Shown in pieces: positions 3,701 to 33,080 of a stretch of DNA of 40,176 bases. Origin of the DNA: a virus (Duplodnaviria; Heunggongvirae; Uroviricota; Caudoviricetes); IMG/VR virus record IMGVR_UViG_2698536646_000014. One strand, written 5' to 3'. Position numbers and translations under genes: made by a program. Below the pieces are notes generated by a model. That model ran no database searches and was not told the DNA's origin. It worked only from the letters and a program-made list of their open reading frames with translations. How positions within the stretch are numbered: position 1 is the stretch's first letter; each line of letters begins with the position of its first letter.

Positions 3701-4580
3701 TCAGTGGCCTTTGTTGATGCCGTTCCTGCGCTGGAAGACGCCTCCTGAGCCGAAGTCGCGGCCTGTCCGGCTGACGTGCTGGCTGCACGCGCTGAGCCTG
3801 CAGCATCAGTCGCATGGGTTGCCGCCTCACGGGCAGATGTGCCGGCATCACTGGCTGACTTCTTCGCGGCTGCCGTGTTCTGTGCCACCGCGGACGCGTT
3901 ACGCGCCACCTCTTCCACCATCAGTTCAAAACGGCGCAGAGCCTCCGGACGGGCATCATCCTCCGTCATGGCACCGAGAAAATCATTCAGCGTACCGGGT
4001 CGGGAATCTTCATACACGGTGATGGTCCCGGCATGTGACGGCGGGAATCCTTCCACCAACAGAATAACGCTGTACTGACCGTACTCAANNNNNNNNNNNN
4101 NNNNNNNNNNNNNNNNNNNNNNNNNNNNNNNNNNNNNNNNNNNNNNNNNNNNNTTGCCGCCTCACGGGCTGATGTGCTGGCATCGCTGGCTGATTTCTTC
4201 GCGGCTGCCGTGTTCTGTGCCACCGCGGACGCGTTACGCGCCACCTCTTCCACCATCAGTTCAAAGCGGCGCAGTGCCTCAGGACGGGCATCATCCTCCG
4301 TCATGGCACCGAGAAAATCATTCAGCGTACCGGGTCGGGAATCTTCATACACGGTGATGGTCCCGGCATGTGACGGCGGGAATCCTTCCACCAACAGAAT
4401 AACGCTGTACTGACCGTACTCAACGTCCATGCTGTAACGCCCGGCTTCATCCGGATTTTCTGAGGCCAGCGTGTTCACCACCACCGTGGTGCTGTTACGT
4501 TTTGCTTTCAGCTGGATTGTGCAGTTCTGTACCGGTTTTCCTGTGCCGTCTTTCAGTACACCTGAAATCTTTACTGCCAT
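797..4580 (-). CDS. stf: side tail fiber protein Stf, interrupted by two scaffold gaps; reading frame across gaps not recoverable
   Basis: N-terminus [26 protein letters not shown] and C-terminus ...[31 protein letters not shown] match lambda Stf. Ala/Ser-rich shaft with phage-tail-fibre repeats. True start is the ATG at 4580 (track start 4586 is GTG), preceded by GGGGTG. Confidence 0.85.
1067..1570. other. assembly gap (run of N) inside stf
   Basis: Continuous n characters; the translated X-run in the ORF track is an artefact. Confidence 1.
2520..2860 (-). repeat. about 3.3 tandem copies of a 132-bp unit inside stf, encoding a 44-aa tail-fibre repeat
   Basis: Direct repeats gtgctgtt(g/a)gt(t/c)gcact... 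seen three times; protein repeat [44 protein letters not shown] x3. Confidence 0.85.
4089..4153. other. assembly gap (run of N) inside stf, flanked by near-identical duplicated sequence
   Basis: About 265 bp on each side (about 3822-4088 and 4154-4420) are roughly 97% identical, consistent with unmerged contig ends or collapsed paralogous stf copies. Confidence 0.9.
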
Positions 4581-20736: not shown

Positions 20737-22835
20737 AACCATCCTCCGGAAGTCAGCCAGGGGTTAACATCGTCAGTTACTGTTTTCTTCCGTTTTTGTT
20801 TTTTAACAGGCGTGGATACCGGTTCCGGTGAGGGTGACGGTTCGGTACTGTCCGGGACACACTCCAGCCAGGTTTCCCGGCTCGCCCACTCCGGTGCATC
20901 CGGCCAGCGGATCTTTTCGTATCCATGCAGAATGACCAGAGCCTCGGCATACACCATCAGGTCAAAAGCTTCGTTGGCACCGCGACCCGGCTTACTCCAT
21001 TTCCCGTCACTGCTCCGCTCTTCATACGTCAGTTCGTCGTAAAACCAGCTCCCCAGCCAGTCAGGGAAATGCACATAGCCGGGACCTGGCGAGTCACGCC
21101 ATAACGCGTTATTCACCCGGTCTTTCAGTGCATCCGTCTGAAGAAGCCAGAGCGGCACATCACCTGCGGCCTGCGCCCGTCGGCCCGTTCGTCCGGTGTT
21201 ATCAGGGAATGTACGGGTGATCAGTTTTGCGCGCCGGATGCTGTCGCCCTTAAACAGGTAAATACGTTTACCAAGGCCATCACGACGGCAACGACGCCAG
21301 AATTTATAGGCATTATCAGTGACCCCGTCTTCACCGCCGGAGTCCACCGCCATTGCCATCAGTCGCATTTGTTGAGAAGGATCGGAGGCCAGCGGCCAGC
21401 TTTTATGAAAAACATCCGTCAGCAGGACATCCCAGTCTTCCGGATAGCTGGCCGGATCAATTCGCTGGCTCTCCCCGTCGCTGTCACCGCGCAATGACTG
21501 CGTGATGTTGTAACGATCAATAATCCAGCGTTCGCCACGGCTGCCATAGCCCGTTACCTGAACCACAAAACGGCGATGACGTCCCGCCTGCACATCCACT
21601 GTCGCCACAAGGAAATTAACGCCATCCGGCACACTGCGGGAAGGAACTGGCTCTGCCCGCTGCTCAAGCAGTTCACTTTTTCGTTGCTCCATGCTGGCGC
21701 GGGGAAGATAAGGTAATCCCCAGTCGGTATTGATAACCGTCTTGAGTGTTTCTTCACTTCCGGTTGTCTCGTATTCCTGTTCTGCAGTAAGCAGTTTGTA
21801 AACGAGTTGCGAGAGTGTCTGGTAAGCAGCTGCCGGACCCTCCATCCAGAATGACGCAATACGTGAGCGTCGGGGATCACCATAACGACTGCCATCCGCA
21901 TTGATGGATTCACCATCCCGCAACCAGACCCCACGTCCGTTCAGCTCACGTTTGTGTTCAGGCATAATCCGTCCTGAACAGGAAGGACACTGAATATAAG
22001 CCGCCTCACTTGCCAGCACGGGATCGGCAATATCACGGAAACCAGCAACCACATCGCCGCAGGGCTGAAAATACTCACCACAGTGTGGACAGGGCCAGTA
22101 CCAGCGACGGCGATCGCCACGGTTATAGAGCGACAGTATCCCCGTGGTTGGTGGAGCCTCATGCGGTGAAGTCCGTCGCCATTTCACATCCTTCACATCC
22201 CTGCCGGGGGAACTCTCCACAAGCGTCATACCACTGGACATAAATGTTGTGGTACGTTTTGAGGCAAGAGAGAAAGCATCCCCCTCGCCATCAATATCTT
22301 CCGGAAAACGGTCATAATCCGTCAGCGCGACGCATTTATAATCTGATGAGGACATGATATTGACTGACGGCCAGCCGATTTTCAGGTAGTTACCAGCAAG
22401 GAATGTTCTGTCATAAACGTTGTTGTCATTTTTGTTCGGACTCAGGCGACTGACCACTTCCGGGCTGACGCGAAACGTTCTGGCGAGTCGTTTTTTGGAG
22501 TGTTCGCGGGCTTTTTCCTCCGTCATCTGAATGATCAGCATATCAGCAGGATCGCAAATCACGTTGTAAATCACCCAGCCGTCAATCAGGCCGATAGTCT
22601 TGCCGGTTCGTGCCGGGCCAACAAATATCACTGCGTCGTATTCACGCGAGGCCAGGCAGTTCATCGGCTCAATAACATACGGTGCCACCAGCGGATCCCA
22701 CGGGACTGAGTTCCCTGCCCCCATGGGCACCCGCATATACTGAGCAACGGCATCAGCAACCCGCATTCGTCTCGGTGCGCGAAGGATATAACCTGAATCG
22801 GTTCGTGCTGCCTTTGCGGTTTCCTGATTCAGCAT
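20733..22835 (-). CDS. terminase large subunit (gpA family)
   Basis: 700-aa ORF with Walker-A-like GPARTGKT and a CPHCGE zinc-finger-like motif resembling lambda gpA CPHCGEE; follows the small-subunit gene. Confidence 0.85.
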   Translation of the reverse strand: MLNQETAKAARTDSGYILRAPRRMRVADAVAQYMRVPMGAGNSVPWDPLVAPYVIEPMNCLASREYDAVIFVGPARTGKTIGLIDGWVIYNVICDPADMLIIQMTEEKAREHSKKRLARTFRVSPEVVSRLSPNKNDNNVYDRTFLAGNYLKIGWPSVNIMSSSDYKCVALTDYDRFPEDIDGEGDAFSLASKRTTTFMSSGMTLVESSPGRDVKDVKWRRTSPHEAPPTTGILSLYNRGDRRRWYWPCPHCGEYFQPCGDVVAGFRDIADPVLASEAAYIQCPSCSGRIMPEHKRELNGRGVWLRDGESINADGSRYGDPRRSRIASFWMEGPAAAYQTLSQLVYKLLTAEQEYETTGSEETLKTVINTDWGLPYLPRASMEQRKSELLEQRAEPVPSRSVPDGVNFLVATVDVQAGRHRRFVVQVTGYGSRGERWIIDRYNITQSLRGDSDGESQRIDPASYPEDWDVLLTDVFHKSWPLASDPSQQMRLMAMAVDSGGEDGVTDNAYKFWRRCRRDGLGKRIYLFKGDSIRRAKLITRTFPDNTGRTGRRAQAAGDVPLWLLQTDALKDRVNNALWRDSPGPGYVHFPDWLGSWFYDELTYEERSSDGKWSKPGRGANEAFDLMVYAEALVILHGYEKIRWPDAPEWASRETWLECVPDSTEPSPSPEPVSTPVKKQKRKKTVTDDVNPWLTSGGWL

Positions 22836-24144: not shown

Positions 24145-24612
24145 TCATCGAAGGCATTGCGTCCTGATATATTCCTGAAGCGTTCTCAGTGCTGTCTGGT
24201 CTCTGATGATTCCGTCCCGGATACCGAGAACGTTTCGTCCAGCAACTGGAGAGAGTTCGACGGTGGCATCATTGCCCATGCCGGAGGCGCTGGAGGTTTC
24301 GGCTGAGGATGGCACAGAGCATTTTCCTTTGACGAGCACCCGACCACCATTATCAAGCTTGCGCCGAAGAGCATCATTTTCAGCTTTCGCATCAGCCAAC
24401 TCCTTCGTGTATTTAGCATCGAGTACATCAGCAGCACGCTGGCGTTGCTGCATGTCAGTAATGGTGGCGGTCGCCTGCTTCAGCTCACTGACTTTTTTAT
24501 CACGCTGTTCTTTGTAGGCGATGGCGTTATCACGGTAATGATTGACCGCCCACGACAGGCAGACGATGATGCAGATAACCAGAGCATAAATAATCGCGGC
24601 GACTCTGCTCAC
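24145..24612 (-). CDS. Rz: i-spanin Rz
   Basis: [34 protein letters not shown]... matches lambda Rz N-terminus; GTG start overlapping the endolysin stop (GTGA). Confidence 0.85.
24186..24392 (-). CDS. Rz1: o-spanin Rz1 (lipoprotein) embedded in Rz in an alternative frame
   Basis: [21 protein letters not shown]... with lipobox VVGC and proline-rich segment PKPPAPPAW, like lambda Rz1. Confidence 0.8.
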
Positions 24613-25142
24613 TGATCTATCCCCCAACAGGCTAATGCGCTTTCCTGGTCACGACGAATAACCTGTCCATAGCAGTTATTTGAACGTATGCGGCAATCGC
24701 GCCCACCATCTTTTATCCACCAGCGAATCGCCTCGCATGCACCTTTACGATCACCAGCATTCAGCCGCTTATAAAACGTCGACGGAAAACACTTACCGGG
24801 GCCAATGTTATAGGGACAAAATGACGCGATACCCGCTTTTTGTGGCTCGGTCAGTGGTACTTTAATATTGCGCTCCACCCATGCCAGCGCCTTATCACGC
24901 TCAATGGCGTTGACCTGGTCGCATTTTTCCTTCGACAGTTTCATACCGGGAAAAACGGGTTTTCCATCCACCATCGTGGCACCCCGACAGATGGTCCAGA
25001 TGCCGGACCCATCGCGGTATGCCGTTGTGTGGTTACCTTCTTTTTCATCCAGAAACTGGTCGAGAATATCAGGCGCGGGCGCACCGACGGCAATCAGTGC
25101 CAGAACGGCAGCCGACAGGCCGTATCTGATTTTTGCGTTCAT
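24609..25142 (-). CDS. R: SAR endolysin (T4-lysozyme-like muramidase), phage-21 R type
   Basis: N-terminal Gly/Ala-rich weakly hydrophobic segment ([14 protein letters not shown]), T4-lysozyme-like catalytic region, C-terminus ...ACWGIDQ resembling R21 ...CLWGQQ. Confidence 0.8.
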
Positions 25143-25197: not shown

Positions 25198-25414
25198 TCA
25201 GTGACTTAAGGTTGTGATTCCGGAGGAGTCTTCAGAGAACCAGTAATTCTTCCTGGTAGCTTTCCTTTGTAGGTTATCCAAACATTCTGCGCATCTANNN
25301 NNNNNNNNNNNNNNNNNNNNNNNNNNNNNNNNNNNNNNNNNNAAACCAGTACCCGGCACTACCTGCTGAGGTGCCATAGGCGACACCCGTTGTTAACTTA
25401 TCCATGGATTTCAT
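25198..25414 (-). CDS. S: pinholin (S21-like) with dual-start motif; interrupted by scaffold gap, C-terminal frame unresolved
   Basis: N-terminus [24 protein letters not shown] matches S21 (dual starts at M1 and M4); GAGGTG RBS; remainder lost in the N-run at 25298-25342. Confidence 0.6.
25298..25342. other. assembly gap (run of N) inside the holin gene
   Basis: Continuous n characters. Confidence 1.
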
Positions 25415-25447: not shown

Positions 25448-25477
25448 GGAAATAAAAAGGCCACCTGACGTGGCCAC
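25448..25477 (-). terminator. intrinsic terminator between methyltransferase gene and holin
   Basis: ggccac-ctgac-gtggcc hairpin followed on the minus strand by TTTTTATTT. Confidence 0.65.
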
Positions 25478-25481
25478 CAGA

Positions 25482-26534
25482 TTATTTCCCCACCAGCTCG
25501 TTTATCTCTTTCACTGTCTGATTAAACCGCTCTGACTCAAGCTCAACACCTAAGGCCCGACGCCCCAGCGCCATTGCTGCTTTTATTGTGGAACCGGATC
25601 CCATAAAAAAATCAGCAACCAGATCACCTGGTCGACTACTGGCATTGATTATTTGCCTGAGCATATCCGCCGGTTTCTCACACGGATGTTTCCCCGGGTA
25701 GAACTGAACGGGTTTATGCATCCAGACATCGGTATAAGGCACGGAGACTGATACGGAGAAATAGCGCCGGAGAGATTTAAACTCATCCAGCAATTCAGAA
25801 TATTTACGATTCAGTGAATCATAAGATGCCACCAGCTGGTGGTGTGGTTGTTCCAGTTGTTGTTCCTGAAACTTCTCTGCCGCTATACGGGAAAACAGTG
25901 CCTGTAACTTCCGATAGTCAGCCTCATTCGGCAACTGCCACTGACTGGCACCAAACCAGTGGGAAACCATATTTTTCTTACCTGTGGCTTCGGCAATTTG
26001 TTTTGCCGTTATACCCAGTTCGGCACGAGCATCCCTGAAATACGATATCAGCGGTGCCATTATGTGCTGTTTGAGTTCCCTTTCTTTTGCCGCATAGCCG
26101 TCACTTTTGCCGCGATATGGCCCCTGGTAATGTTCAGCAAACAGAACGCGCTCTGTGGCAGGAAAATATGCGCGCAGACTTTCTTTATTACACCCATTCC
26201 AACGTCCGGACGGCTTCGCCCAGATGATATGGTTAAGCACGTTGAAACGTTCACGCATCATGATCTCAATATCAGATGCCAGGCGATGCCCACAGAACAG
26301 GTAAAGGCTTCCGGCAGGTTTCAACACCCGCCAGAACTGGGCCAGACAGTGGTCCAGCCACTTAAGGTAATCTTCGTCCCCTTTCCACTGATTGTCCCAA
26401 CCGTTGGGTTTCACCTTGAAGTAAGGCGGATCGGTAACAATCAGGTCAATGGAATCATCAGGCAGGGACTGAATAAAATGCAGGCAATCAGCGTTGATTA
26501 AATCAACACTGTTTATTTTTACAGTATTTTTCAT
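25482..26534 (-). CDS. orphan DNA methyltransferase (beta-class amino-MTase; probably N6-adenine)
   Basis: 350-aa ORF with motif IV DPPY near the N-terminus ([11 protein letters not shown]) and motif I FxGxG near the C-terminus (DFFMGSGST); no adjacent restriction gene. Confidence 0.8.
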
Positions 26535-26684
26535 GGATCAGTAAGCGTAACTCTGGTAGGCTCACTCTGCTTTTGCGCTAAAGCAGTGGGCCGTGGTTCG
26601 CTTGTGACCAGTAAGCATGAGCGAATGGCTGGCAGGTGCTACCAACACCCACCAGCCGCCCATTTTCACAGCAGGAAACCGCCA

Positions 26685-26888
26685 TTACTGGCAGCGTCTG
26701 AATTTATTCCCGTACCCGCCGTTATCCTTCGCCAGACCCGCCAGAACTAACTGAGTCAGTATTAACTGGCACCGGGCTTCGCTTACTCCGGTAGTTCTCG
26801 TCATCATGCGTGGCGTTACCCACTTGTCAGCAGGTAAGAAATGAAGGACTGCGGCGGCGGTTTCTGTCATATCTTGCTGTTTTAGCAT
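26685..26888 (-). CDS. small hypothetical protein (possible winged-helix DNA-binding)
   Basis: 67-aa ORF from internal ATG with AAGGGA RBS-like sequence; no recognisable homology. Confidence 0.3.
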   Translation of the reverse strand: MLKQQDMTETAAAVLHFLPADKWVTPRMMTRTTGVSEARCQLILTQLVLAGLAKDNGGYGNKFRRCQ

Positions 26889-27005
26889 GTCTTTTTCCCT
26901 TCTGGTTAACATGACATACCAATAACTCTTGTCTAAAAAGCCAGCAAGATAAAAAGTCAGTATTCACGACCACCAGCGTGTTTACTGTACTGCACCAAGT
27001 TTACG

Positions 27006-27034
27006 GGTACAAAAAACCCGCTCAGTGGCGGGTT
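27006..27034 (-). terminator. terminator hairpin, second copy of the tR'-like element, downstream of the lipoprotein gene
   Basis: ggtacaaaaaacccgctcagtggcgggtt, near-identical to the element at 27682-27710 (2 mismatches in 29 bp). Confidence 0.6.
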
Positions 27035-27111: not shown

Positions 27112-27537
27112 TTAAAACTCTGCTTTCATTTTATCCGGGAATTTTTTATTTGCAGCATAATAACTACCAAGTACATAAGCGTTCATTTGCTGCTCTACAT
27201 CAACCCGACATGCCGCACTAGAACAAGCTCCACTGATAAGCCCAAAAGAACTCCCTTTAGCAGAGAGATCAGCTTTGATTTCCTCTACAGTGTTTTTCCC
27301 CATAGCAACTACACACCCTGTCACAATATATCTAGCTTTCACATCATCCATGCTAAGGATAGTAGTTTTCGCAATTTTGCTGTATCCATCATTTTTATAA
27401 ACATCCATGGCAAACGCACGGCAATCTGTATAATACGGACTTGCTTTAACTTGCGAATACTCAGGTAATTTCATACCTGCACAACCAACTAAACAAAAAC
27501 CTATCGCTGCTATTAATACCTTTTTCATTACAGTCAT
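27112..27537 (-). CDS. lipoprotein of unknown function (moron)
   Basis: Signal peptide and lipobox (MKKVLIAAIGFCLVGCAG); AT-rich codon usage unlike the surrounding phage genes; flanked by duplicated terminator hairpins. Confidence 0.7.
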   Translation of the reverse strand: MTVMKKVLIAAIGFCLVGCAGMKLPEYSQVKASPYYTDCRAFAMDVYKNDGYSKIAKTTILSMDDVKARYIVTGCVVAMGKNTVEEIKADLSAKGSSFGLISGACSSAACRVDVEQQMNAYVLGSYYAANKKFPDKMKAEF

Positions 27538-27681: not shown

Positions 27682-27713
27682 GGCACAAAAAACCCGCTCA
27701 GCGGCGGGTTTTT
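27682..27713 (-). terminator. tR'-like intrinsic terminator (bidirectional) downstream of the late promoter
   Basis: acaaaaaacccgc-tcagcg-gcgggttttt; A-run and T-run on both sides. Confidence 0.7.
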
Positions 27714-27756
27714 GACATTTACCAACGGTAGACATACAAGGCCCATCGTTGAGAAA

Positions 27757-27785
27757 ATCTTATCCATATTTTTTGAAAAATGCAA
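27757..27785 (-). promoter_or_regulatory. pR'-like late promoter downstream of Q
   Basis: Minus strand TTGCAT - 17 bp - TAAGAT, about 35 bp after the Q stop and about 60 nt before the terminator hairpin. Confidence 0.55.
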
Positions 27786-27816: not shown

Positions 27817-28569
27817 CTATCTTGTCACTTTTCTCAATTGCGATTCAGCATACGCTTCTTCCTGCCAGCACTTTGTAACCAGTTTATTAATAACGTCTGC
27901 ATATCCTTTGTACCACTGATAATCCGTCAGGTCCGGTACCAGTTTCTGGACATGATGCCGCGCCAGTGTGGTTGGTAAACGGCTAAACCGGTTGCCATTG
28001 CAACGCCCACAAATCTTATAAACAGGCACACCATGAAGCCGGGTTCTTTTTTCATCCAGGACAATACCTTTACCCTTACACCCTCTGCACGCTGTGCTGA
28101 CTTCTCCCTTACCATGGCAATGCTGACATAGTTCCTTCACCCACTCTTCCTTGATAACAGATTCCCCGCTTCTGGAGTGTTTCACCACTTCGCGCAATAC
28201 ATTATGAAATCCAGTACCAGCACAATGCTCACAGCGAGCCTTACTTGCCGCAGACCTGGAATAATCAGCAAAGGCAAAATTCACAAGGTAAGGGATGATC
28301 TGTAACCGGGTTTCTTCACTCAATTTGTTCAATGTCGGGTTATCCAGTGCCATCGCGTAATTGAGCAGACCTTCAATCGCAAATTGAGGATCCTGAACAC
28401 CAACTTTTGCCAGGAATAAGGCAAACCCAAGCGGTGCTTTCGACTGCACCATCCCCTGCGCAGCCATCACATCCGTAATCGTTAAACCACCTGAGCCTGT
28501 CGCCGGTGCGTCATCGCTCAATTTTGGAGATTTTGGGGAGTAATATTTTGGTAAGGCTTCAAGGTTCAT
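27817..28569 (-). CDS. late-gene antiterminator Q (Cys-rich, phage-82 / QuuQ-like type)
   Basis: 250-aa ORF from the ATG preceded by GGAGAA; several CxxC pairs (CEHCAGTG, CQHCHGKG, CRGCKGKG, CGRCNG); located just upstream of the pR'/tR' pair and lysis genes. Confidence 0.7.
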   Translation of the reverse strand: MNLEALPKYYSPKSPKLSDDAPATGSGGLTITDVMAAQGMVQSKAPLGFALFLAKVGVQDPQFAIEGLLNYAMALDNPTLNKLSEETRLQIIPYLVNFAFADYSRSAASKARCEHCAGTGFHNVLREVVKHSRSGESVIKEEWVKELCQHCHGKGEVSTACRGCKGKGIVLDEKRTRLHGVPVYKICGRCNGNRFSRLPTTLARHHVQKLVPDLTDYQWYKGYADVINKLVTKCWQEEAYAESQLRKVTR

Positions 28570-28582
28570 GCTCGTTCTCCAC

Positions 28583-29578
28583 TTACGCCAATACGCCAAT
28601 TGCCAGCGCACGATCGATAAAACGAAATATCAGCTCCAGCTGGGAGCCATACTTCTCTTCAAATGCCACGGTATCCGCATGCAGCTCGTCGTGATGCTTT
28701 CTGCACAAAGGCAACACAAAGAGGTCATGCGCTTTTGTACCCATTCCACCCTGACCGTGGCCTATCAGGTGGTGGGGATCATCAGCAGGCTTTCCACAAC
28801 ATGCACACGGCTGTGTCTTAACCCAGCGCGTGTACTTTTCATTAACCCAGCGGCGGCGTTTTGGGCGTAACATAAAAGACTCCGGCGACTCCGGATCCAC
28901 TTTCAGCGCCAGCACCTTTTTTGCCTTATCCTGGATGATGCTGGTGGCAGGAACCGAAGGCACAAGGTCACTTTCCCGGGTGACAGACGGCACAACAGGC
29001 TTTGGTAATCTCAGTGCCTTACGGGCTGCACTTTCCGGTAAGGCATCCGCCAGGTCATTACGAATCAGCCACCAGCACAGTTCCGGCATTGTCACAACGT
29101 GACTATCATCAAAACCGAGATCCCGACGCACAACAGACAACACCCAGCGGGCACAGTTATCCGTTGCCATTGATTCCAGCCGTTCCGTGAACTGATCGCG
29201 CAGCTGGTTATCGCAGTGCCAGCACAGACGGATTGCGCCCGGAGCGTGTCGCATTGTGGTCATGTTCTCGCTGTGCCAGTCGGAATGAGGCCACTGGCAG
29301 CCTTTTTCACGAAGTAACCAGCTTTCAAGACATTCCACGCCACCAGCACGACGGATCACTGCCTCATTGCGGAACACGGCCCGAACGGCAGGATCATCCG
29401 CCAGCGGTTGTGATGCCGCCGGAACGGCACCACTGGCGAAAGATGAATAACGTTCCGGCTCAGGCTCCAGCAGAACACGCCCCTGCATAAACAGGGGCAT
29501 CAGCTCTGAACCTGGCCTGAACAATACGATCCCCATACGCGGGGCAATTTCAGGGGTCAGTAGTGCTCTCACGGTCAC
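28583..29578 (-). CDS. DUF968-like (YdfU-like) protein with C-terminal HNH/NinG-like Cys/His motif
   Basis: 331-aa ORF ending ...PCACCGKPADDPHHLIGHGQGG...CRKHHDELH; immediately upstream of Q. Start uncertain (GTG at 29578 or internal ATG). Confidence 0.55.
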   Translation of the reverse strand: MTVRALLTPEIAPRMGIVLFRPGSELMPLFMQGRVLLEPEPERYSSFASGAVPAASQPLADDPAVRAVFRNEAVIRRAGGVECLESWLLREKGCQWPHSDWHSENMTTMRHAPGAIRLCWHCDNQLRDQFTERLESMATDNCARWVLSVVRRDLGFDDSHVVTMPELCWWLIRNDLADALPESAARKALRLPKPVVPSVTRESDLVPSVPATSIIQDKAKKVLALKVDPESPESFMLRPKRRRWVNEKYTRWVKTQPCACCGKPADDPHHLIGHGQGGMGTKAHDLFVLPLCRKHHDELHADTVAFEEKYGSQLELIFRFIDRALAIGVLA

Positions 29579-29579
29579 C

Positions 29580-30389
29580 TCAATGAACGGTATCGAGCAG
29601 CTTTAACAGCTCAGGGAATCGGGATTCGAAGAAATGCGGCTGCGTCTCGCGCGGATTTGCAGGACTGGTGATGTTCTTGCCGAACATGCAGCCTTTCGCC
29701 GTCAGCGACCAGAATTTTTTGATGTTGTTAATCGCGGTACGGCTGTATCGTTCGCGTTGTTCAACGATCCCCAGCTTCACCATCTGGTGATATGCCTGAT
29801 TAGCCGTCAGGCGGATACCATACTGCTTCAGCAGTGCACTCAGCGACAGCGTGGGGCGACTTGAGCCATCAGGCGCGTCAGCAGGAGCATCAATGGCATA
29901 GCGCGGTGCCAGATTCGGTAAGCCAACAGCCTCCTGAAGCTTCTGACAGGCTCCAAGCACTGATGAGTTAGACAGATTTAATTCCCGGCGCATAAAGTCC
30001 AGCAGGATCACGCCAGCCTGCATCTTGTCAGCAGCCTGTCCGGATAATTTTTCCGGTGCGCTGGTTACCATGTCGAAAGTACGGATCACCTTCAGATGGA
30101 ATGACGGGCTGATCCACATTGCATAGGCATACACCAGTTCTTTGCAGACATACGTCCCCTGGTTATTTCCGCCATTAATGACGCTAACTGGTTGATTTTG
30201 TTCCAGAGGCGGAATTCCACCCTCGGTGAAAAGTTGTTCAATCAATTCACAGGTTTGCTTATTGGAGAGCCAGTATTTCGGGCGGTTTTTTTGTTCTCCC
30301 CCGGCTGCCCTGTGCAGATCGTTCAGGCTGTAACGCCCATAAGCATCACGACGAACTTCAATACCATCAATGACCATCAGATTATTCAT
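29580..30389 (-). CDS. KilA-N domain protein (antirepressor-like)
   Basis: N-terminus MNNLMVIDGIEVRRDAYGRYSLNDLHRAAGGEQ...PKYWL typical of KilA-N; GAGGAGA RBS. Confidence 0.65.
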   Translation of the reverse strand: MNNLMVIDGIEVRRDAYGRYSLNDLHRAAGGEQKNRPKYWLSNKQTCELIEQLFTEGGIPPLEQNQPVSVINGGNNQGTYVCKELVYAYAMWISPSFHLKVIRTFDMVTSAPEKLSGQAADKMQAGVILLDFMRRELNLSNSSVLGACQKLQEAVGLPNLAPRYAIDAPADAPDGSSRPTLSLSALLKQYGIRLTANQAYHQMVKLGIVEQRERYSRTAINNIKKFWSLTAKGCMFGKNITSPANPRETQPHFFESRFPELLKLLDTVH

Positions 30390-30408
30390 ACTTCGTTTCT
30401 CCTCTTGA

Positions 30409-30798
30409 TCAGGCGGCTGCACCCGCCGGTTTCTCATACTTACTGATAGTGATCTCGACCTTCCCTTTCTGGATAACCGGTCCCCACTCCACCAGCATTC
30501 TTTTCACCTGGCTGTCGTCTTCCCACACCCCCGCGTGGGTCAGGGCGTCAAACAGCGCCTTGTTATAGTTGTCCAGATCGCGGATCCGGTTATCCGGAGG
30601 AAACAACACGATCTCCACTGAAGCAGGTGCCGACGTTGGTTTTGGCAGACGACGTAACTGCTCAACTATTGCTGCGCACGCCGCGCTCTGAAATTTTCGC
30701 CCCGCCGCGCTTATCAGGCTCTTACCAGCAAATGCCCCTTTGTTGGGGTGTCGCCAGTACGTGTTCACGCTGGGCGGGAAAGGCAGGATCAGCTTCAT
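30409..30798 (-). CDS. rusA: Holliday junction resolvase RusA
   Basis: 129-aa ORF with PPSVNTYWRH and RDLDNYNKALFDALTHAGVWEDD motifs, like DLP12 RusA (PPSNNRYYRH, RRDLDNLQKAAFDAL). Confidence 0.85.
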   Translation of the reverse strand: MKLILPFPPSVNTYWRHPNKGAFAGKSLISAAGRKFQSAACAAIVEQLRRLPKPTSAPASVEIVLFPPDNRIRDLDNYNKALFDALTHAGVWEDDSQVKRMLVEWGPVIQKGKVEITISKYEKPAGAAA

Positions 30799-31121
30799 AC
30801 TTTCAGGCCTCTCTCATGTAACCAGTGGGTTGCACGCAGCCTGGCGTTTTCCTCACCGGCAAGCAGTGAGCGGATAATCCCGACCGCCTCGCTGTCGTCG
30901 TCCTTCACCGCGGTATGAAGAGTGATACCCCGGGCCATGCCACGCTTTATCGTGATGACGCCTTTTTTCTCCAGTGCGCGAAGATGTTCCACCGCTGCAT
31001 TCACTGAACGGTATCCCAGCATGGTTGCCACCTCCTGATTGGTTGGCGGGAAGCCACGTTCTTTCTGGTAAGAAATCAGCATATCCAGCACCTGCTGCTG
31101 GCATTGAGTTAACGTCGTCAT
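30795..31121 (-). CDS. LexA N-terminal DNA-binding-domain homologue lacking the S24 peptidase domain
   Basis: 108-aa ORF: ...LTQCQQQVLDMLISYQKERGFPPTNQEVATMLGYRSVNAAVEHLRALEKKGVITIKRG..., versus LexA ...[55 protein letters not shown]. ATGA overlaps on both sides. Confidence 0.65.
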   Translation of the reverse strand: MTTLTQCQQQVLDMLISYQKERGFPPTNQEVATMLGYRSVNAAVEHLRALEKKGVITIKRGMARGITLHTAVKDDDSEAVGIIRSLLAGEENARLRATHWLHERGLKV

Positions 31122-31771
31122 GCCGCCATCTCCCTGACCAGTTTTTCCGCCTGCTGGCGAACCTGCGCCAGAAACGCCTCACCACATGCCTCAAGTTCAT
31201 CGCGCCCGATGTAGCTGATTGCCGGTCCCTTCCAGGTCTTGTCGAAAACAGCAATAGCACCAGCGAAGAAAGCGCCTGTCGGCACCTGCTTCTCGTCCTT
31301 CGGGATAAACCAGGCAGGCAGTTCAAAACCAATACGCCCGCGAATAAAAGCAATATGATCTGCATCTTCCGGCCACCACACTTCGCTGGTGGCAGCTTTG
31401 ATCAGGAAAACATAGCGTCCGCCCTTATCACGCATGGCACTGGCATGTTTCATGATGTAACGCATGCCGGTGATGTATTGCCCTTCATGCTGACTGGCGC
31501 GGCTGTACGGGGGATTACCAAAGGCAGCACCTTTAAGCTCCGCAAGACGTTCAGACCAGTCATGCGCCAGCGCGTTGTCTTCCGCAGTGTAATAAGCGGC
31601 ACATTTGGCGTTATCACCATCAGTGAACAGATCCAGAACAAACGGGCCAAACAGGGTGTTAATTCCCCAGAAAATGTTATCCGGCGTGCGCCACTGATCG
31701 CCCACTTCCTTCAGTTCATGGGCTGGTTTGTTCCGCAGCTCCACCAGCGCCTGGCAATATTTATTACTCAT
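31118..31771 (-). CDS. phage Dam-family N6-adenine DNA methyltransferase
   Basis: About 217-aa ORF with NPPYS motif (AAFGNPPYSRA); nin-region position typical of small phage Dam methylases. Confidence 0.7.
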   Translation of the reverse strand: MSNKYCQALVELRNKPAHELKEVGDQWRTPDNIFWGINTLFGPFVLDLFTDGDNAKCAAYYTAEDNALAHDWSERLAELKGAAFGNPPYSRASQHEGQYITGMRYIMKHASAMRDKGGRYVFLIKAATSEVWWPEDADHIAFIRGRIGFELPAWFIPKDEKQVPTGAFFAGAIAVFDKTWKGPAISYIGRDELEACGEAFLAQVRQQAEKLVREMAA

Positions 31772-32259
31772 TAAGCCCCCACGTAATTCCCTGACAGATA
31801 CCACTCTTCACCCGATGCAGCGCGCTTGCTGCTTTTCCGTAAGCACCGCTCACGACGCGCCAGAAAATTGTTTCGTTCTGGCTGGGAGTGGCTTTCACGG
31901 AATGCCGCCATCCACACCGTTGCAGCACGACGGTATAAGCCCCTGGACTCCAGTTCTTCCGCCTGGCGGGTCAGGCACAAAATCACCCGGGGATCGTTAG
32001 TGCCGACATAGAAATTGCGCACAGGTCTGGTTTCACGAACTGGTTGTGGTTCCGGCTCCTGCGCTCTCTCAGTCAGGCGTGGGAAATGTCTGCGTGTATC
32101 TCCTTCATAACGGTGAGCCACACGCCCACTCTGACGTAACTTGCTTGCTGACTGCAGAACGCGCTGCCGTGAGTAACCTGCAAAAGCATCCGCAATGTCT
32201 CCGGAAGTACACCCCGGATGGGCTTCAATGAATTTCTGAACTTCATTCAAAAGACTCAT
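31771..32259 (-). CDS. hypothetical protein (possible N-terminal winged-helix regulator)
   Basis: About 163-aa ORF; start ATG preceded by AGGGGGTG; no recognisable catalytic motif. Confidence 0.4.
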   Translation of the reverse strand: MSLLNEVQKFIEAHPGCTSGDIADAFAGYSRQRVLQSASKLRQSGRVAHRYEGDTRRHFPRLTERAQEPEPQPVRETRPVRNFYVGTNDPRVILCLTRQAEELESRGLYRRAATVWMAAFRESHSQPERNNFLARRERCLRKSSKRAASGEEWYLSGNYVGA

Positions 32260-32261
32260 GA

Positions 32262-33080
32262 TCACCCCCTGAATCCTGCCGGGATCTGGCTGTAGTCCAC
32301 GTTGTCGTAACTGGCTTTGAAGTACGGGTCCTCGCGTCTGGCTGCAGATACCGCAGGAACTTCCCAGAATTCTTCGAAATGACGATCCGGACCAAAGAAC
32401 GTGACAGCCTGTTTCACAAATTGTGTGCCGCTGTTACCCATCGCAGATACCCATCCCGCGTAGCGTTTCACACCTTCCAGCATGGTTTCGGGGTTTACTC
32501 CCTCATTCAAACGGGCTTTCCAGGCTTTGAAGGCTGCAGATTTTGAATTGCCACCAGCACGTTTGGGATATGCCAGCCATGCCTGCTCAAACTCCGGAGA
32601 GTATTCCGGTCGGTTTGAACGAACTCGCACGGACTCATCAACTGATGCACCAACAGCTATTGGTTCATTGACTGGTTCTTTGACTGGTTCAAAAGAGTGA
32701 CTGGTTCTGGGTGAATCTCCTGCACTACCCCCTGGTGCAACTCCTGCACTACCTGGTGAATTTGCTGCACCAGATAGTGAATTATTTGCACTACCCCCTA
32801 GTGAATCTCCTGCACCATCCAGATGAAGGAGATAGATATTACTTGAGTTACCTTTTTCACCTTTCCGGGTGACTTTTTTTACCAGCCCGGACTCACAAAG
32901 GGCCGCAATATGATTCATCACAGAACGTTTGCTAATTTCGCACTGGTCAGCAATATGCTGGTAGCTGGGCCAGCACTCACCCTGATCGCTGGCATTATCA
33001 GCCAGCTTGATCAGAACCAGTTTTCGCAATGGATTACCCACTCGAATTTTCATCGCTTTAACCATCAGCTCCATACTCAT
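32262..33080 (-). CDS. replication initiator, lambda O-like (N-terminal wHTH, internal iterons)
   Basis: N-terminal HTH region (KIRVGNPLRKLVLIKLADNASDQGECWPSYQHIADQCEISKRSVMNHIAALCESGLV), Gly/Ser/Ala-rich linker encoded by a DNA repeat array, GGAGGTG RBS. Confidence 0.6.
   Translation of the reverse strand: MSMELMVKAMKIRVGNPLRKLVLIKLADNASDQGECWPSYQHIADQCEISKRSVMNHIAALCESGLVKKVTRKGEKGNSSNIYLLHLDGAGDSLGGSANNSLSGAANSPGSAGVAPGGSAGDSPRTSHSFEPVKEPVNEPIAVGASVDESVRVRSNRPEYSPEFEQAWLAYPKRAGGNSKSAAFKAWKARLNEGVNPETMLEGVKRYAGWVSAMGNSGTQFVKQAVTFFGPDRHFEEFWEVPAVSAARREDPYFKASYDNVDYSQIPAGFRG
32660..32860. repeat. iteron-like direct repeats plus adjacent AT-rich stretch inside the initiator gene (candidate ori)
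   Basis: Repeated units tgactggttc (x3), gtgaatctcctgcac (x2), tgcactaccccct (x2), followed by agatgaaggagatagatattacttgag; same architecture as lambda ori within O. Coordinates approximate. Confidence 0.55.

Follow-up and report, generated by a model that had tools for sequence, protein, structure and literature searches.

The DNA analysed here, called the window throughout, is a viral sequence of 40,176 nucleotides (nt; Caudoviricetes; IMG/VR record IMGVR_UViG_2698536646_000014) in which all genes in the part from the late antiterminator gene Q to the terminase gene are read from the minus strand. An earlier note on this sequence had pointed to two orphan DNA methyltransferases (MTases), one of them placed among the late genes, and we have followed up both genes together with the RNA leader that precedes the late one. 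With a probability of about 0.8, the window is a lambdoid (pro)phage of the mEp460/Ayreon-like type with two solitary adenine MTases of known kinds, namely an M.EcoGII-type enzyme in the late region, downstream of a structured leader RNA, and a Dam-family enzyme in the early-right (nin-like) block. The features at issue are as follows.

25482..26534, minus strand: late MTase gene, coding for an orphan beta-class N6-adenine DNA MTase of the M.EcoGII family with 350 amino acids (aa) (PF01555, motifs, identity to M.EcoGII)
26535..26547, minus strand: segment just 5' of the start codon (CGCUUACUGAUCC), which can pair with the leader segment GGUCACAAGCG, overlapping the 3' strand of P1
26556..26674, minus strand: conserved structured RNA leader of 119 nt, with a P1-P2-P3 5' domain and a P4/P5 3' domain (covariance models, covariation)
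31118..31771, minus strand: gene for a small, orphan N6-adenine MTase of the phage Dam family, 217 aa, in the early-right (nin-like) block (PF05869, TIGR01712)

The late enzyme had been described as a 350-aa beta-class amino-MTase with DPPY followed by FxGxG at 25448-26534. The gene is an intact open reading frame (ORF) with its left boundary at 25482; with 25448 as its left end, the earlier interval also covered the terminator downstream of the gene. The protein matches the full Pfam profile PF01555 (N6_N4_Mtase; E 2e-42) over residues 29-341, with a large central insertion, and because DPPY (residues 35-38) is N-terminal and FMGSG (residues 310-314) C-terminal, the motif order is that of the beta class. 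The earlier note had allowed that the catalytic motifs might turn out to be disrupted on careful alignment; in both MTases they are intact. Nor does a nuclease-like gene adjoin the late MTase gene, whose neighbours are the 75-aa phrog_331 ORF and the holin gene, so that the locus is not that of a type II restriction-modification system. By its sequence, the late MTase belongs with the non-specific adenine MTases of the M.EcoGII family, and we judged this assignment unambiguous. The membership had gone unrecognised in the earlier note.

M.EcoGII/M.EcoGI of E. coli O104:H4 C227-11 (GenBank EGT69837.1) resembles the late MTase in length (349 versus 350 aa), in the beta-class order DPPY, target recognition domain (TRD), FxGxG, and in being a prophage-borne orphan. 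The two proteins are identical at 281/349 positions over the full length with 2 gaps (~80%), the identities being 119/134 in the N-terminal core, 60/78 in the TRD (residues 160-237) and 68/91 in the C-terminal core. The late MTase has thus diverged from M.EcoGII by ~20% and is nearer to the reconstructed ancestor Anc291 (310/350 identical, ~89%), with SUPREM at 246/350 (~70%); both Anc291 and SUPREM methylate DNA and RNA with no discernible motif (PMC11551740). A further homologue, PhiOS31_p25 of the Serratia phage OS31 (vB_SspS_OS31), is 64% identical and was found to be relaxed or non-specific in a restriction-protection assay, in which it protected HinfI, PfeI, SchI, Hin1II, Tru1I, TasI and MboI sites (PMC7556043). 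This placement among non-specific enzymes (Anc291 89%, SUPREM 70%, OS31 p25 64%) is drawn from pairwise identities. The late MTase shares 100% identity with the protein of phage Ayreon and with the product of a prophage gene of E. coli A14 (named 'DNA-methyltransferase' by PGAP), and its gene has a megablast match in 1255/5426 complete E. coli genomes, that is in about a quarter of them, with at least 99% identity in 607 records.

The position of the late MTase gene is defined by the following neighbours.

24145-24627, minus strand: spanin-like lysis-protein ORF, by its position 3' of the lysozyme gene and before the terminase gene
24609..25142, minus strand: endolysin (phage lysozyme) gene (PF00959, E 1e-24)
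25198..25414, minus strand: holin gene ('holin' in Ayreon), with a 45-base N run at 25298-25342 inside it and an approximate end
25450..25475, minus strand: hairpin resembling a terminator, the third of this region, past the MTase stop codon and ahead of the holin gene (annotated terminator in Ayreon and SfV; -19.5 kcal/mol, z -3.8)
26685..26912, minus strand: small ORF of 75 aa from its longest start (67 aa as annotated), PHROG 331, with no assigned function (phrog_331, E 3e-26)
27006..27034, minus strand: second intrinsic terminator (annotated terminator in phage Ayreon)
27112..27537, minus strand: low-GC, lipoprotein-like moron gene, 141 aa, phrog_4748, flanked by both repeated terminators
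27682..27713 (approximately), minus strand: first terminator past the late promoter, tR'-like (hairpin and U-tract, -13.9 kcal/mol; annotated terminator in Ayreon)
27745..27785, minus strand: pR'-like late promoter, TTGCAT, 17 nt, TAAGAT, then CTCAACGATGGG, collinear with lambda pR'
27817..28611, minus strand: gene for the late antiterminator Q, lambda-Q family with a zinc-finger insertion (PF03589, E 7e-54; matches to the lambda Q chains 7UBM and 4MO1)

The order on the minus strand is Q, pR'-like promoter, terminator, lipoprotein gene, terminator, 75-aa ORF, MTase, terminator, holin, lysozyme, spanin-like ORF and terminase, and the earlier placing of the MTase gene between tR' and the lysis genes was therefore correct, with three terminators in fact. 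The start of Q is probably the annotated one, at 28569. In the alignment, lambda pR' reads TTGACT, 17 nt, TAAATT, then CTCAACGATGGG, and past Q the spacing from TAAATT (lambda) or TAAGAT (window) to AACGATGGG is 6 nt in both; the AACGAT element is known as the sigma-70-dependent pause site for Q loading.

The whole arrangement recurs in other phages. The 2.5-kb segment from Q to the holin gene is 98.6% identical to phage Ayreon and 98.5% to mEp460, in which the MTase gene is annotated as 'DNA methylase', and the annotations of Ayreon and SfV show the same late cassette. The succession of Q, small ORF, ~150 nt and MTase is found again in SfV, phiP27, Stx2a_WGPS2, 1720a-02, Morganella IME1369_02 and Hafnia yong2, followed on the 3' side of the MTase gene either by a terminator and holin or by tRNA genes and stx. 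In related Shiga toxin (Stx) phages the MTase gene likewise lies past Q and behind the small ORF, as in the window, and there the tRNA genes and stx take the place of the holin gene that directly follows here. MTase homologues also stand directly 5' of the lysis genes in the N15-like phage YDC107_1 and the VHML-like Vibrio phage MAR, and in OS31 p25 is directly 5' of the holin gene, as is the late MTase. The small ORF, for which a Pfam search gave 0 matches, lies 5' of the MTase gene in SfV, phiP27, Morganella IME1369_02, Hafnia yong2 and Stx2 phages (48-54% identity) and is missing in OS31, YDC107_1 and MAR; in OS31 a putative toxin-antitoxin pair occupies its place 5' of p25, and the Q type differs from that of the window.

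With the MTase gene placed past the Q/pR'/tR' region and ahead of the lysis genes, late expression under Q suggests itself, and the status of the gene as late-operon cargo, as the earlier note had it, is supported by the anatomy (lambda-family Q, pR'-like promoter, terminators). Specifically, the late MTase would be a Rossmann core split by a helical, helix-turn-helix (HTH)-containing TRD that methylates adenine N6 in essentially any context. In a lysogen its gene would be silent behind two intrinsic terminators, as the anatomy and the published near-identical genes suggest, while after induction Q-modified RNA polymerase would read through the terminators, so that the MTase would be made together with the lysis and morphogenesis proteins and would heavily methylate replicated phage DNA ahead of packaging. 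Methylated progeny would gain a broad, host-independent shield against adenine-sensitive restriction systems, at the cost of sensitivity to methyl-adenine-dependent (type IV) nucleases.

Studies of near-identical enzymes bear on this scheme. M.EcoGI and M.EcoGII give no methylation signal in the native lysogen, and constitutive expression of the prophage-borne M.EcoGII slows growth (PMC5778455); M.EcoMV of EC958, which is 99% identical to M.EcoGI, gives no transcript in the lysogen by RT-PCR (PMC4659465); and a review also describes lysogen silence and toxicity of M.EcoGII-type enzymes (PMC12707154). The methylome comparison of a lysogen proposed in the earlier note has in effect been made, for near-identical enzymes only, with these negative outcomes (PMC5778455, PMC4659465). 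Because such enzymes are silent in lysogens and harmful when expressed, protection of progeny DNA is favoured and epigenetic action on the host disfavoured; of the two functions that the note had offered, we thus retain the former, which is the accepted hypothesis for the M.EcoGII family, as the probable role of the late MTase, and set aside the latter. Expression at the latest possible time fits a toxic enzyme needed just for the DNA that is about to be packaged. A functional analogue is Mom of phage Mu, likewise a late, lysogen-silent, toxic and broadly anti-restriction DNA modification of a temperate phage (PMC12707154), although it is an analogue only, the protein and its chemistry (carbamoylmethylation of adenine) being unrelated and its regulation, by Com and Dam, being different.

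The second MTase had been reported as a small Dam-family enzyme with NPPY in the nin-like block at 31118-31771, and this description stands. The protein matches PF05869 Dam (E 1e-45, 156 bits against a cut-off of 28.1) and, as an equivalog, the NCBIfam model TIGR01712 phage_N6A_met (255.6 bits against a cut-off of 97.05); PGAP names the gene 'phage N-6-adenine-methyltransferase', whereas a PDB sequence search with the protein gave no match. It has NPPYS at 86-90, and residues D25, W27, T29, P30, L46, D47 and others are invariant in comparison with the 933W, HP1 and T1 Dam proteins. Like the phage Dam family (M.EcoVT2Dam/933W p34, T1 Dam, HP1 Dam), it is a small N6-adenine MTase without a discrete TRD, it shares the invariants D..W.TP, LD, NPPYS, S..W and GR..F, and its gene lies where lambdoid phage members have theirs, in the early or nin region. 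It differs from the 933W, T1 and HP1 proteins by insertions after NPPYS and near residue 165, and its subgroup includes ST64B sb44 (70%) and proteins of Chi-like phages (~46%). As the earlier note had stated for both MTases, no restriction gene is adjacent: the Dam-like gene adjoins no nuclease-like gene, its neighbours being a PerC-like ORF and a LexA-DNA-binding-domain ORF. Judged by its family membership only, the enzyme would probably modify GATC and keep fast-replicating phage DNA fully methylated. Identical or near-identical copies occur in PhiR40_1, 1720a-02 and Stx2a_WGPS2, all of which also carry the late MTase. Ayreon lacks the Dam-like gene at the equivalent slot, which marks this gene as a mosaic module of its own.

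The 150-nt spacer that separates the small ORF from the late MTase gene is more conserved in its DNA than the small ORF is in its protein: among phages of Escherichia, Shigella, Morganella and Hafnia it has 79% mean column identity, as against 48-54% aa identity of the small ORF, and it carries 1-nt indels. To describe it, we built a covariance model (R1) from five sequences and a second model (R2), and searched 84 sources (the window and 83 loci, which are numbered with an L below). R1 found the leader RNA in 31/84 sources and R2 gave 40 matches, all of them on the MTase strand. The 3' end of the leader lies 21 nt 5' of the MTase ATG in the window, and this same distance was kept in 34 of the 40 matches at MTase-derived loci. 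Two phages without the small ORF, OS31 (L005 2871-2982, 5' of p25) and the Vibrio phage MAR, have the leader too. A terminator-type hairpin is nearly always present 5' of the element.

The structure of the leader is shown by covariation. Across the alignment 89% of cells are paired, compared with 30-46% when the pairing is slid, and 24/37 pairs change on both sides, including 12/14 pairs of the long hairpin P3. Compensatory cells number 125, as against 36 +/- 5.5 in shuffles, of which 0/500 reached the observed value. The signal does not depend on a structure-guided alignment, since a structure-blind MAFFT alignment gave 81% of cells paired (32-43% slid) and 54 compensatory cells (23 +/- 4). 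The many G-U pairs assign the RNA to the MTase-sense strand. Rfam 15 had no match at E<=1 in the window segment 25300-27900 or in nine diverse loci with the element, and we found no description of this leader RNA among the papers covered by the literature search; the weak Rfam matches below threshold at other places, to STnc130 and, at the tR' hairpin, to Trp and Leu leaders, we regard as chance.

Three other identities for the element were considered and set aside. A short coding ORF, suggested by a conserved AUG and tandem Trp codons, was rejected on account of 1-2-nt indels and stops that are not conserved, and the Trp codons are missing in Proteus, Providencia and Acerihabitans. The conserved TGTGAAAAT as an extended -10 promoter inside the leader is disfavoured because the TGTG segment covaries with UCACA as P1, with CGUGA/UCACG in the holin-linked class described below as an example; the same covariation means that the RNA must start upstream. 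The known prophage small RNAs (AgvB, AsxR, the EcOnc series, the Pas small RNAs and StxS) are a different element, being 51-74 nt long, terminator-bearing and located 3' of moron genes or between pR' and tR'.

The leader can also form helices that compete with those just described. Its segment (A/G)G(A/G)UCAC-AAGCG can form base pairs with CGCUU-AC-UGAUC(U/C), which occupies positions -14 to -2 relative to the AUG, with a duplex energy of -10 to -13 kcal/mol in most members; on average, cognate pairs reach -10.4, non-cognate pairs -8.7 and shuffled pairs -5.8. In this start-region helix 78.5% of cells are paired, compared with 26-42% when slid and 72.7 +/- 1.2% when permuted (0/500 permutations reached the observed value), AU<->GC double changes occur at three pairs, and the N15-like lineage has a wholly different yet complementary pair, AGCUAU/AUAGCU. 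Because the start-region helix overlaps the 3' strand of P1, formation of P1 and sequestration of the start-codon region are mutually exclusive, which is how a translational switch would operate. From the MAFFT alignment, RNAalifold proposed a further alternative, in which the invariant AUGGGC pairs with GCCCA, with compensatory changes in L048 and L061. Translation of the MTase would thus probably be gated post-transcriptionally, through competition between P1 and the helix that sequesters the start-codon region.

Several sequence traits around the start codon were noted in passing. The MTase gene has no canonical Shine-Dalgarno sequence (26532-26541 and the equivalents in most Enterobacterales copies). 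Directly 5' of the AUG a conserved UGAUC(U/C) is complementary to GAUCA near the 3' end of 16S rRNA, the leader carries G(A/G)UCAC matching this UGAUC(U/C), and MTase codons 4-9 contain a conserved ACUGU...ACAGU hairpin.

The leader is not confined to MTase genes. When copies were drawn from IMG/VR with a DNA pattern that took no account of the MTase, 58 of the 80 loci were model-positive; an MTase start lay exactly 21 nt 3' in 54 of these, one had a truncated MTase gene and three had none. A targeted pattern then yielded a diverged, holin-linked subclass on 25 viral contigs, all with the order Q, terminator, element, 36-193 nt, holin, endolysin; here the structure is kept by compensatory changes, and the holins belong to at least five unrelated families. 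Further copies of the leader lie at L007 2811-2933 and L123 2191-2308. In phage lambda itself, the interval between orf-64 and S (45014-45100; L011 1215-1301) matched R2 with 46.6 bits and E 2e-8 with filters off, the match comprising the P1-P2-P3 domain only and folding at -36.1 kcal/mol (z -4.05), and HK620 has a weak match 5' of S (29.9 bits). The late leader of lambda, between tR' and S, thus shares the 5' domain with the leader of the window and has neither the 3' domain nor the MTase. Because a subclass without the MTase exists, MTase-specific regulation is not the leader's only role.

An interrupted helix of ~20 bp is a typical RNase III substrate. The 5' domain would most simply be a conserved late-leader hairpin for processing and regulation, of RNase III type, which in the MTase-linked class would be extended by the 3' domain and by the helix formed with the start-codon region. 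The title of Daniels et al. 1988, as cited in PMC7547250, names RNase III processing sites in the late leader of lambda; that these sites are the lambda hairpin described here is our conjecture. The leader may be an RNase III-gated or a switch-like late leader. At a little under even odds, we propose that cis-acting leader RNAs of this kind, in the late operons of temperate phages of Enterobacterales and Vibrionales, form an undescribed family, with a lambda-like P1-P2-P3 domain that is probably an RNase III substrate and a start-codon switch in the MTase class, and that the leader gates the MTase or the lysis cassette in response to the level of RNase III, to a ligand like S-adenosylmethionine (SAM) or S-adenosylhomocysteine (SAH), or to the MTase itself, including methylation of adenines in the leader.

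The alternative that deserves most attention is that the leader is a metabolite- or MTase-sensing switch (SAM/SAH, or autoregulation), instead of or besides an RNase III site. It has multiple stems and near-invariant nucleotides beyond the needs of pairing (AAUGGGCG, GCCAU, UCAC, ACC, GCCCA), the AUGGGC element has two mutually exclusive partners, GCUCAU and GCCCA (with the changes in L048 and L061 already mentioned), P1 competes with the start-codon-region helix, and the 21-nt spacing to the ATG is fixed in both sets of loci (34/40 MTase-derived, 54/58 pattern-retrieved). Set against what is expected of a riboswitch, there is strong covariation together with a supported alternative helix, and there is also the MTase-less subclass. 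We nevertheless consider a sensing switch unlikely, because the leader bears no likeness to any known riboswitch class in Rfam 15 and because its 5' domain also occurs without the MTase, 5' of unrelated holins and in lambda, for which a general late-leader processing element is the better fit.

The remaining alternatives concern the MTases. The late enzyme could act mainly on the phage's own programme, by methylating late mRNA or the leader or by marking DNA for packaging or for the timing of lysis, which would explain its conserved place beside the lysis cassette. M.EcoGII does methylate RNA and DNA:RNA hybrids (PMC5778455; PMC11551740), the MTase-then-holin order is shared by lambdoid, N15-like and VHML-like phages, and a structured leader with conserved adenines is common to the MTase-linked and holin-linked classes. 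However, the RNA activity of M.EcoGII is ~100-fold below its DNA activity (Suppl. Table S3, PMC11551740), many viable relatives lack the gene or have it deleted (Ayreon relatives, 933W-type Stx phages), and avoidance of toxicity explains the late position equally well, and we regard this proposal as quite improbable.

Slightly harder still to sustain is the view that the late MTase is an orphan methylase of the conventional, site-specific sort, which recognises a defined site and guards against one restriction system. PGAP names some alleles 'site-specific DNA-methyltransferase', the central TRD has a four-helix bundle of HTH type (PMC11551740), and 18/78 TRD residues differ from those of M.EcoGII. 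Yet non-specificity has been shown for M.EcoGII, for the ancestors that bracket the late MTase (89% and 70%) and for OS31 p25 (64%), and the nearest site-specific relative in the literature, M.PflMI, falls outside the M.EcoGII clade; a site-specific enzyme is thus very improbable. The weakest alternative, that the lysogen expresses one MTase or both and that host genes are thereby regulated epigenetically, can point to the precedent of M.EcoGIII, the MTase of a Stx-phage restriction-modification system that alters host transcription (PMC6602927), and to a weak sigma-70-like match inside the small ORF 5' of the MTase gene, such matches being at chance level in number, but we give it hardly any credence in view of the two terminators between the late promoter and the MTase gene, of the near-identical enzymes that show no methylation signal or transcript in lysogens and are deleterious if constitutive, and of host Dam, against which a GATC-specific phage Dam would be invisible (~98-99.9% of GATC sites methylated).

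We thus return to the reading of the window as a lambdoid (pro)phage with two solitary MTases of known kinds and an RNA leader upstream of the late one, against which a number of points have to be set. The activity and timing proposed for the late MTase draw on homologues and on anatomy, and in the literature searched we found it demonstrated neither that such lambdoid phages carry hyper-methylated DNA in their virions nor that they plate more efficiently on restricting hosts owing to the MTase. The sequences of M.EcoGII, Anc291 and SUPREM were taken from a machine-read Supplementary Table S1 (PMC11551740) in which character-recognition errors are possible, so that the identities to them hold within +/-1-2%. 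The Dam-like protein is only 24-30% identical to the characterised GATC-specific members and has two insertions, and the frequency of GATC in the window (observed/expected 0.75) shows no unusual depletion and is similar to that of other palindromes. With respect to the leader, we did not find it at the MTase homologues of Xenorhabdus, Photorhabdus and Psychromonas or at most of those of Vibrio, and the MTase-less subclass exists.

Both enzymes are ordinary, previously described kinds of phage MTase, and the methyltransferase finding as such is already known: both genes carry annotations in GenBank and RefSeq, the M.EcoGII family is biochemically characterised and serves as a tool for adenine-methylation footprinting and RNA-methylation engineering, and the late-operon position, lysogen silence and presumed anti-restriction role of M.EcoGII-type enzymes are in the literature. 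Packaging of hyper-methylated DNA may bear on host range, both for restricting hosts and for hosts with methyl-adenine-dependent nucleases. The part worth following is the leader RNA, which could explain how a genome-wide adenine methylase is kept harmless until the last minutes of infection, which would tie control of the MTase to a structure that the classical late leader of lambda has as well, and which would add a well-supported family to the RNA databases.

With respect to the Dam-like gene and its surroundings, we also asked whether GATC depletion could serve as a clue to specificity, and found the frequency uninformative. A two-part enzyme formed by the Dam-like gene and the adjacent LexA-domain ORF was rejected: the Dam gene of ST64B codes for 297 aa with an 85-aa C-terminal extension, and this extension, which has no Pfam match and gives E>2 by BLASTP against the LexA domain, is unrelated to it. 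RefSeq phage records often mislabel the Dam-like protein as 'phosphoadenosine phosphosulfate reductase', a label that appears to have been propagated from fusion proteins (phrog_33262). The early-right block, on the minus strand, further contains genes for a DUF968/HNH protein (28583-29578), a KilA-N protein (29580-30437), a protein with the LexA DNA-binding domain only and no protease domain (30795-31121) and a PerC-family regulator (31771-32265). These ORFs are tightly packed, with overlaps of 1 nt between the PerC-like and Dam-like genes and of 4 nt between the Dam-like and LexA-domain genes. The DUF968/HNH gene, a common lambdoid nin-region gene, is the nearest gene with a nuclease motif to either MTase gene and adjoins neither.

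In the late region, the insertion in Q is a DnaJ-type CXXCXGXG zinc finger (PF00684, E 2e-8), and a Q of this type also precedes the holin-linked leader class (L123, L137). The terminators at 27006-27034 and 27682-27710 form a 29-nt direct repeat with 93% identity that brackets the lipoprotein-like gene (27112-27537, GC ~39%); this gene looks like a moron, acquired through recombination at tR' or a duplication of tR'. Similarity to cdtI- and PhiR40_1-type phages begins exactly at the second terminator. The phrog_331 ORF is linked to the MTase gene across phages of Escherichia, Shigella, Morganella, Hafnia, Providencia and Citrobacter at ~50% identity, and several phages have a terminator-like hairpin on its 3' side. 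In 933W-type Stx2a phages (e.g. L004, 933W, 20966-21070), approximately the last 35 MTase codons are kept between the pR'-proximal terminators and the tRNA/stx genes, which suggests that an ancestor of the stx late region bore the MTase gene and that it was later lost by deletion. Just 3' of the MTase gene in a Hafnia psychrotolerans prophage (L036 3782-3928, plus strand) lies a Sib antitoxin RNA (RF00113, 105 bits), and we conclude that a type I toxin-antitoxin module was inserted at the same moron site. Runs of N occur in the window at 1067-1570, 4089-4153, 7565 and 25298-25342, and the low GC value that the composition profile gives for 1001-2000 is artefactual, being caused by the first of these runs, which is 504 bases long.

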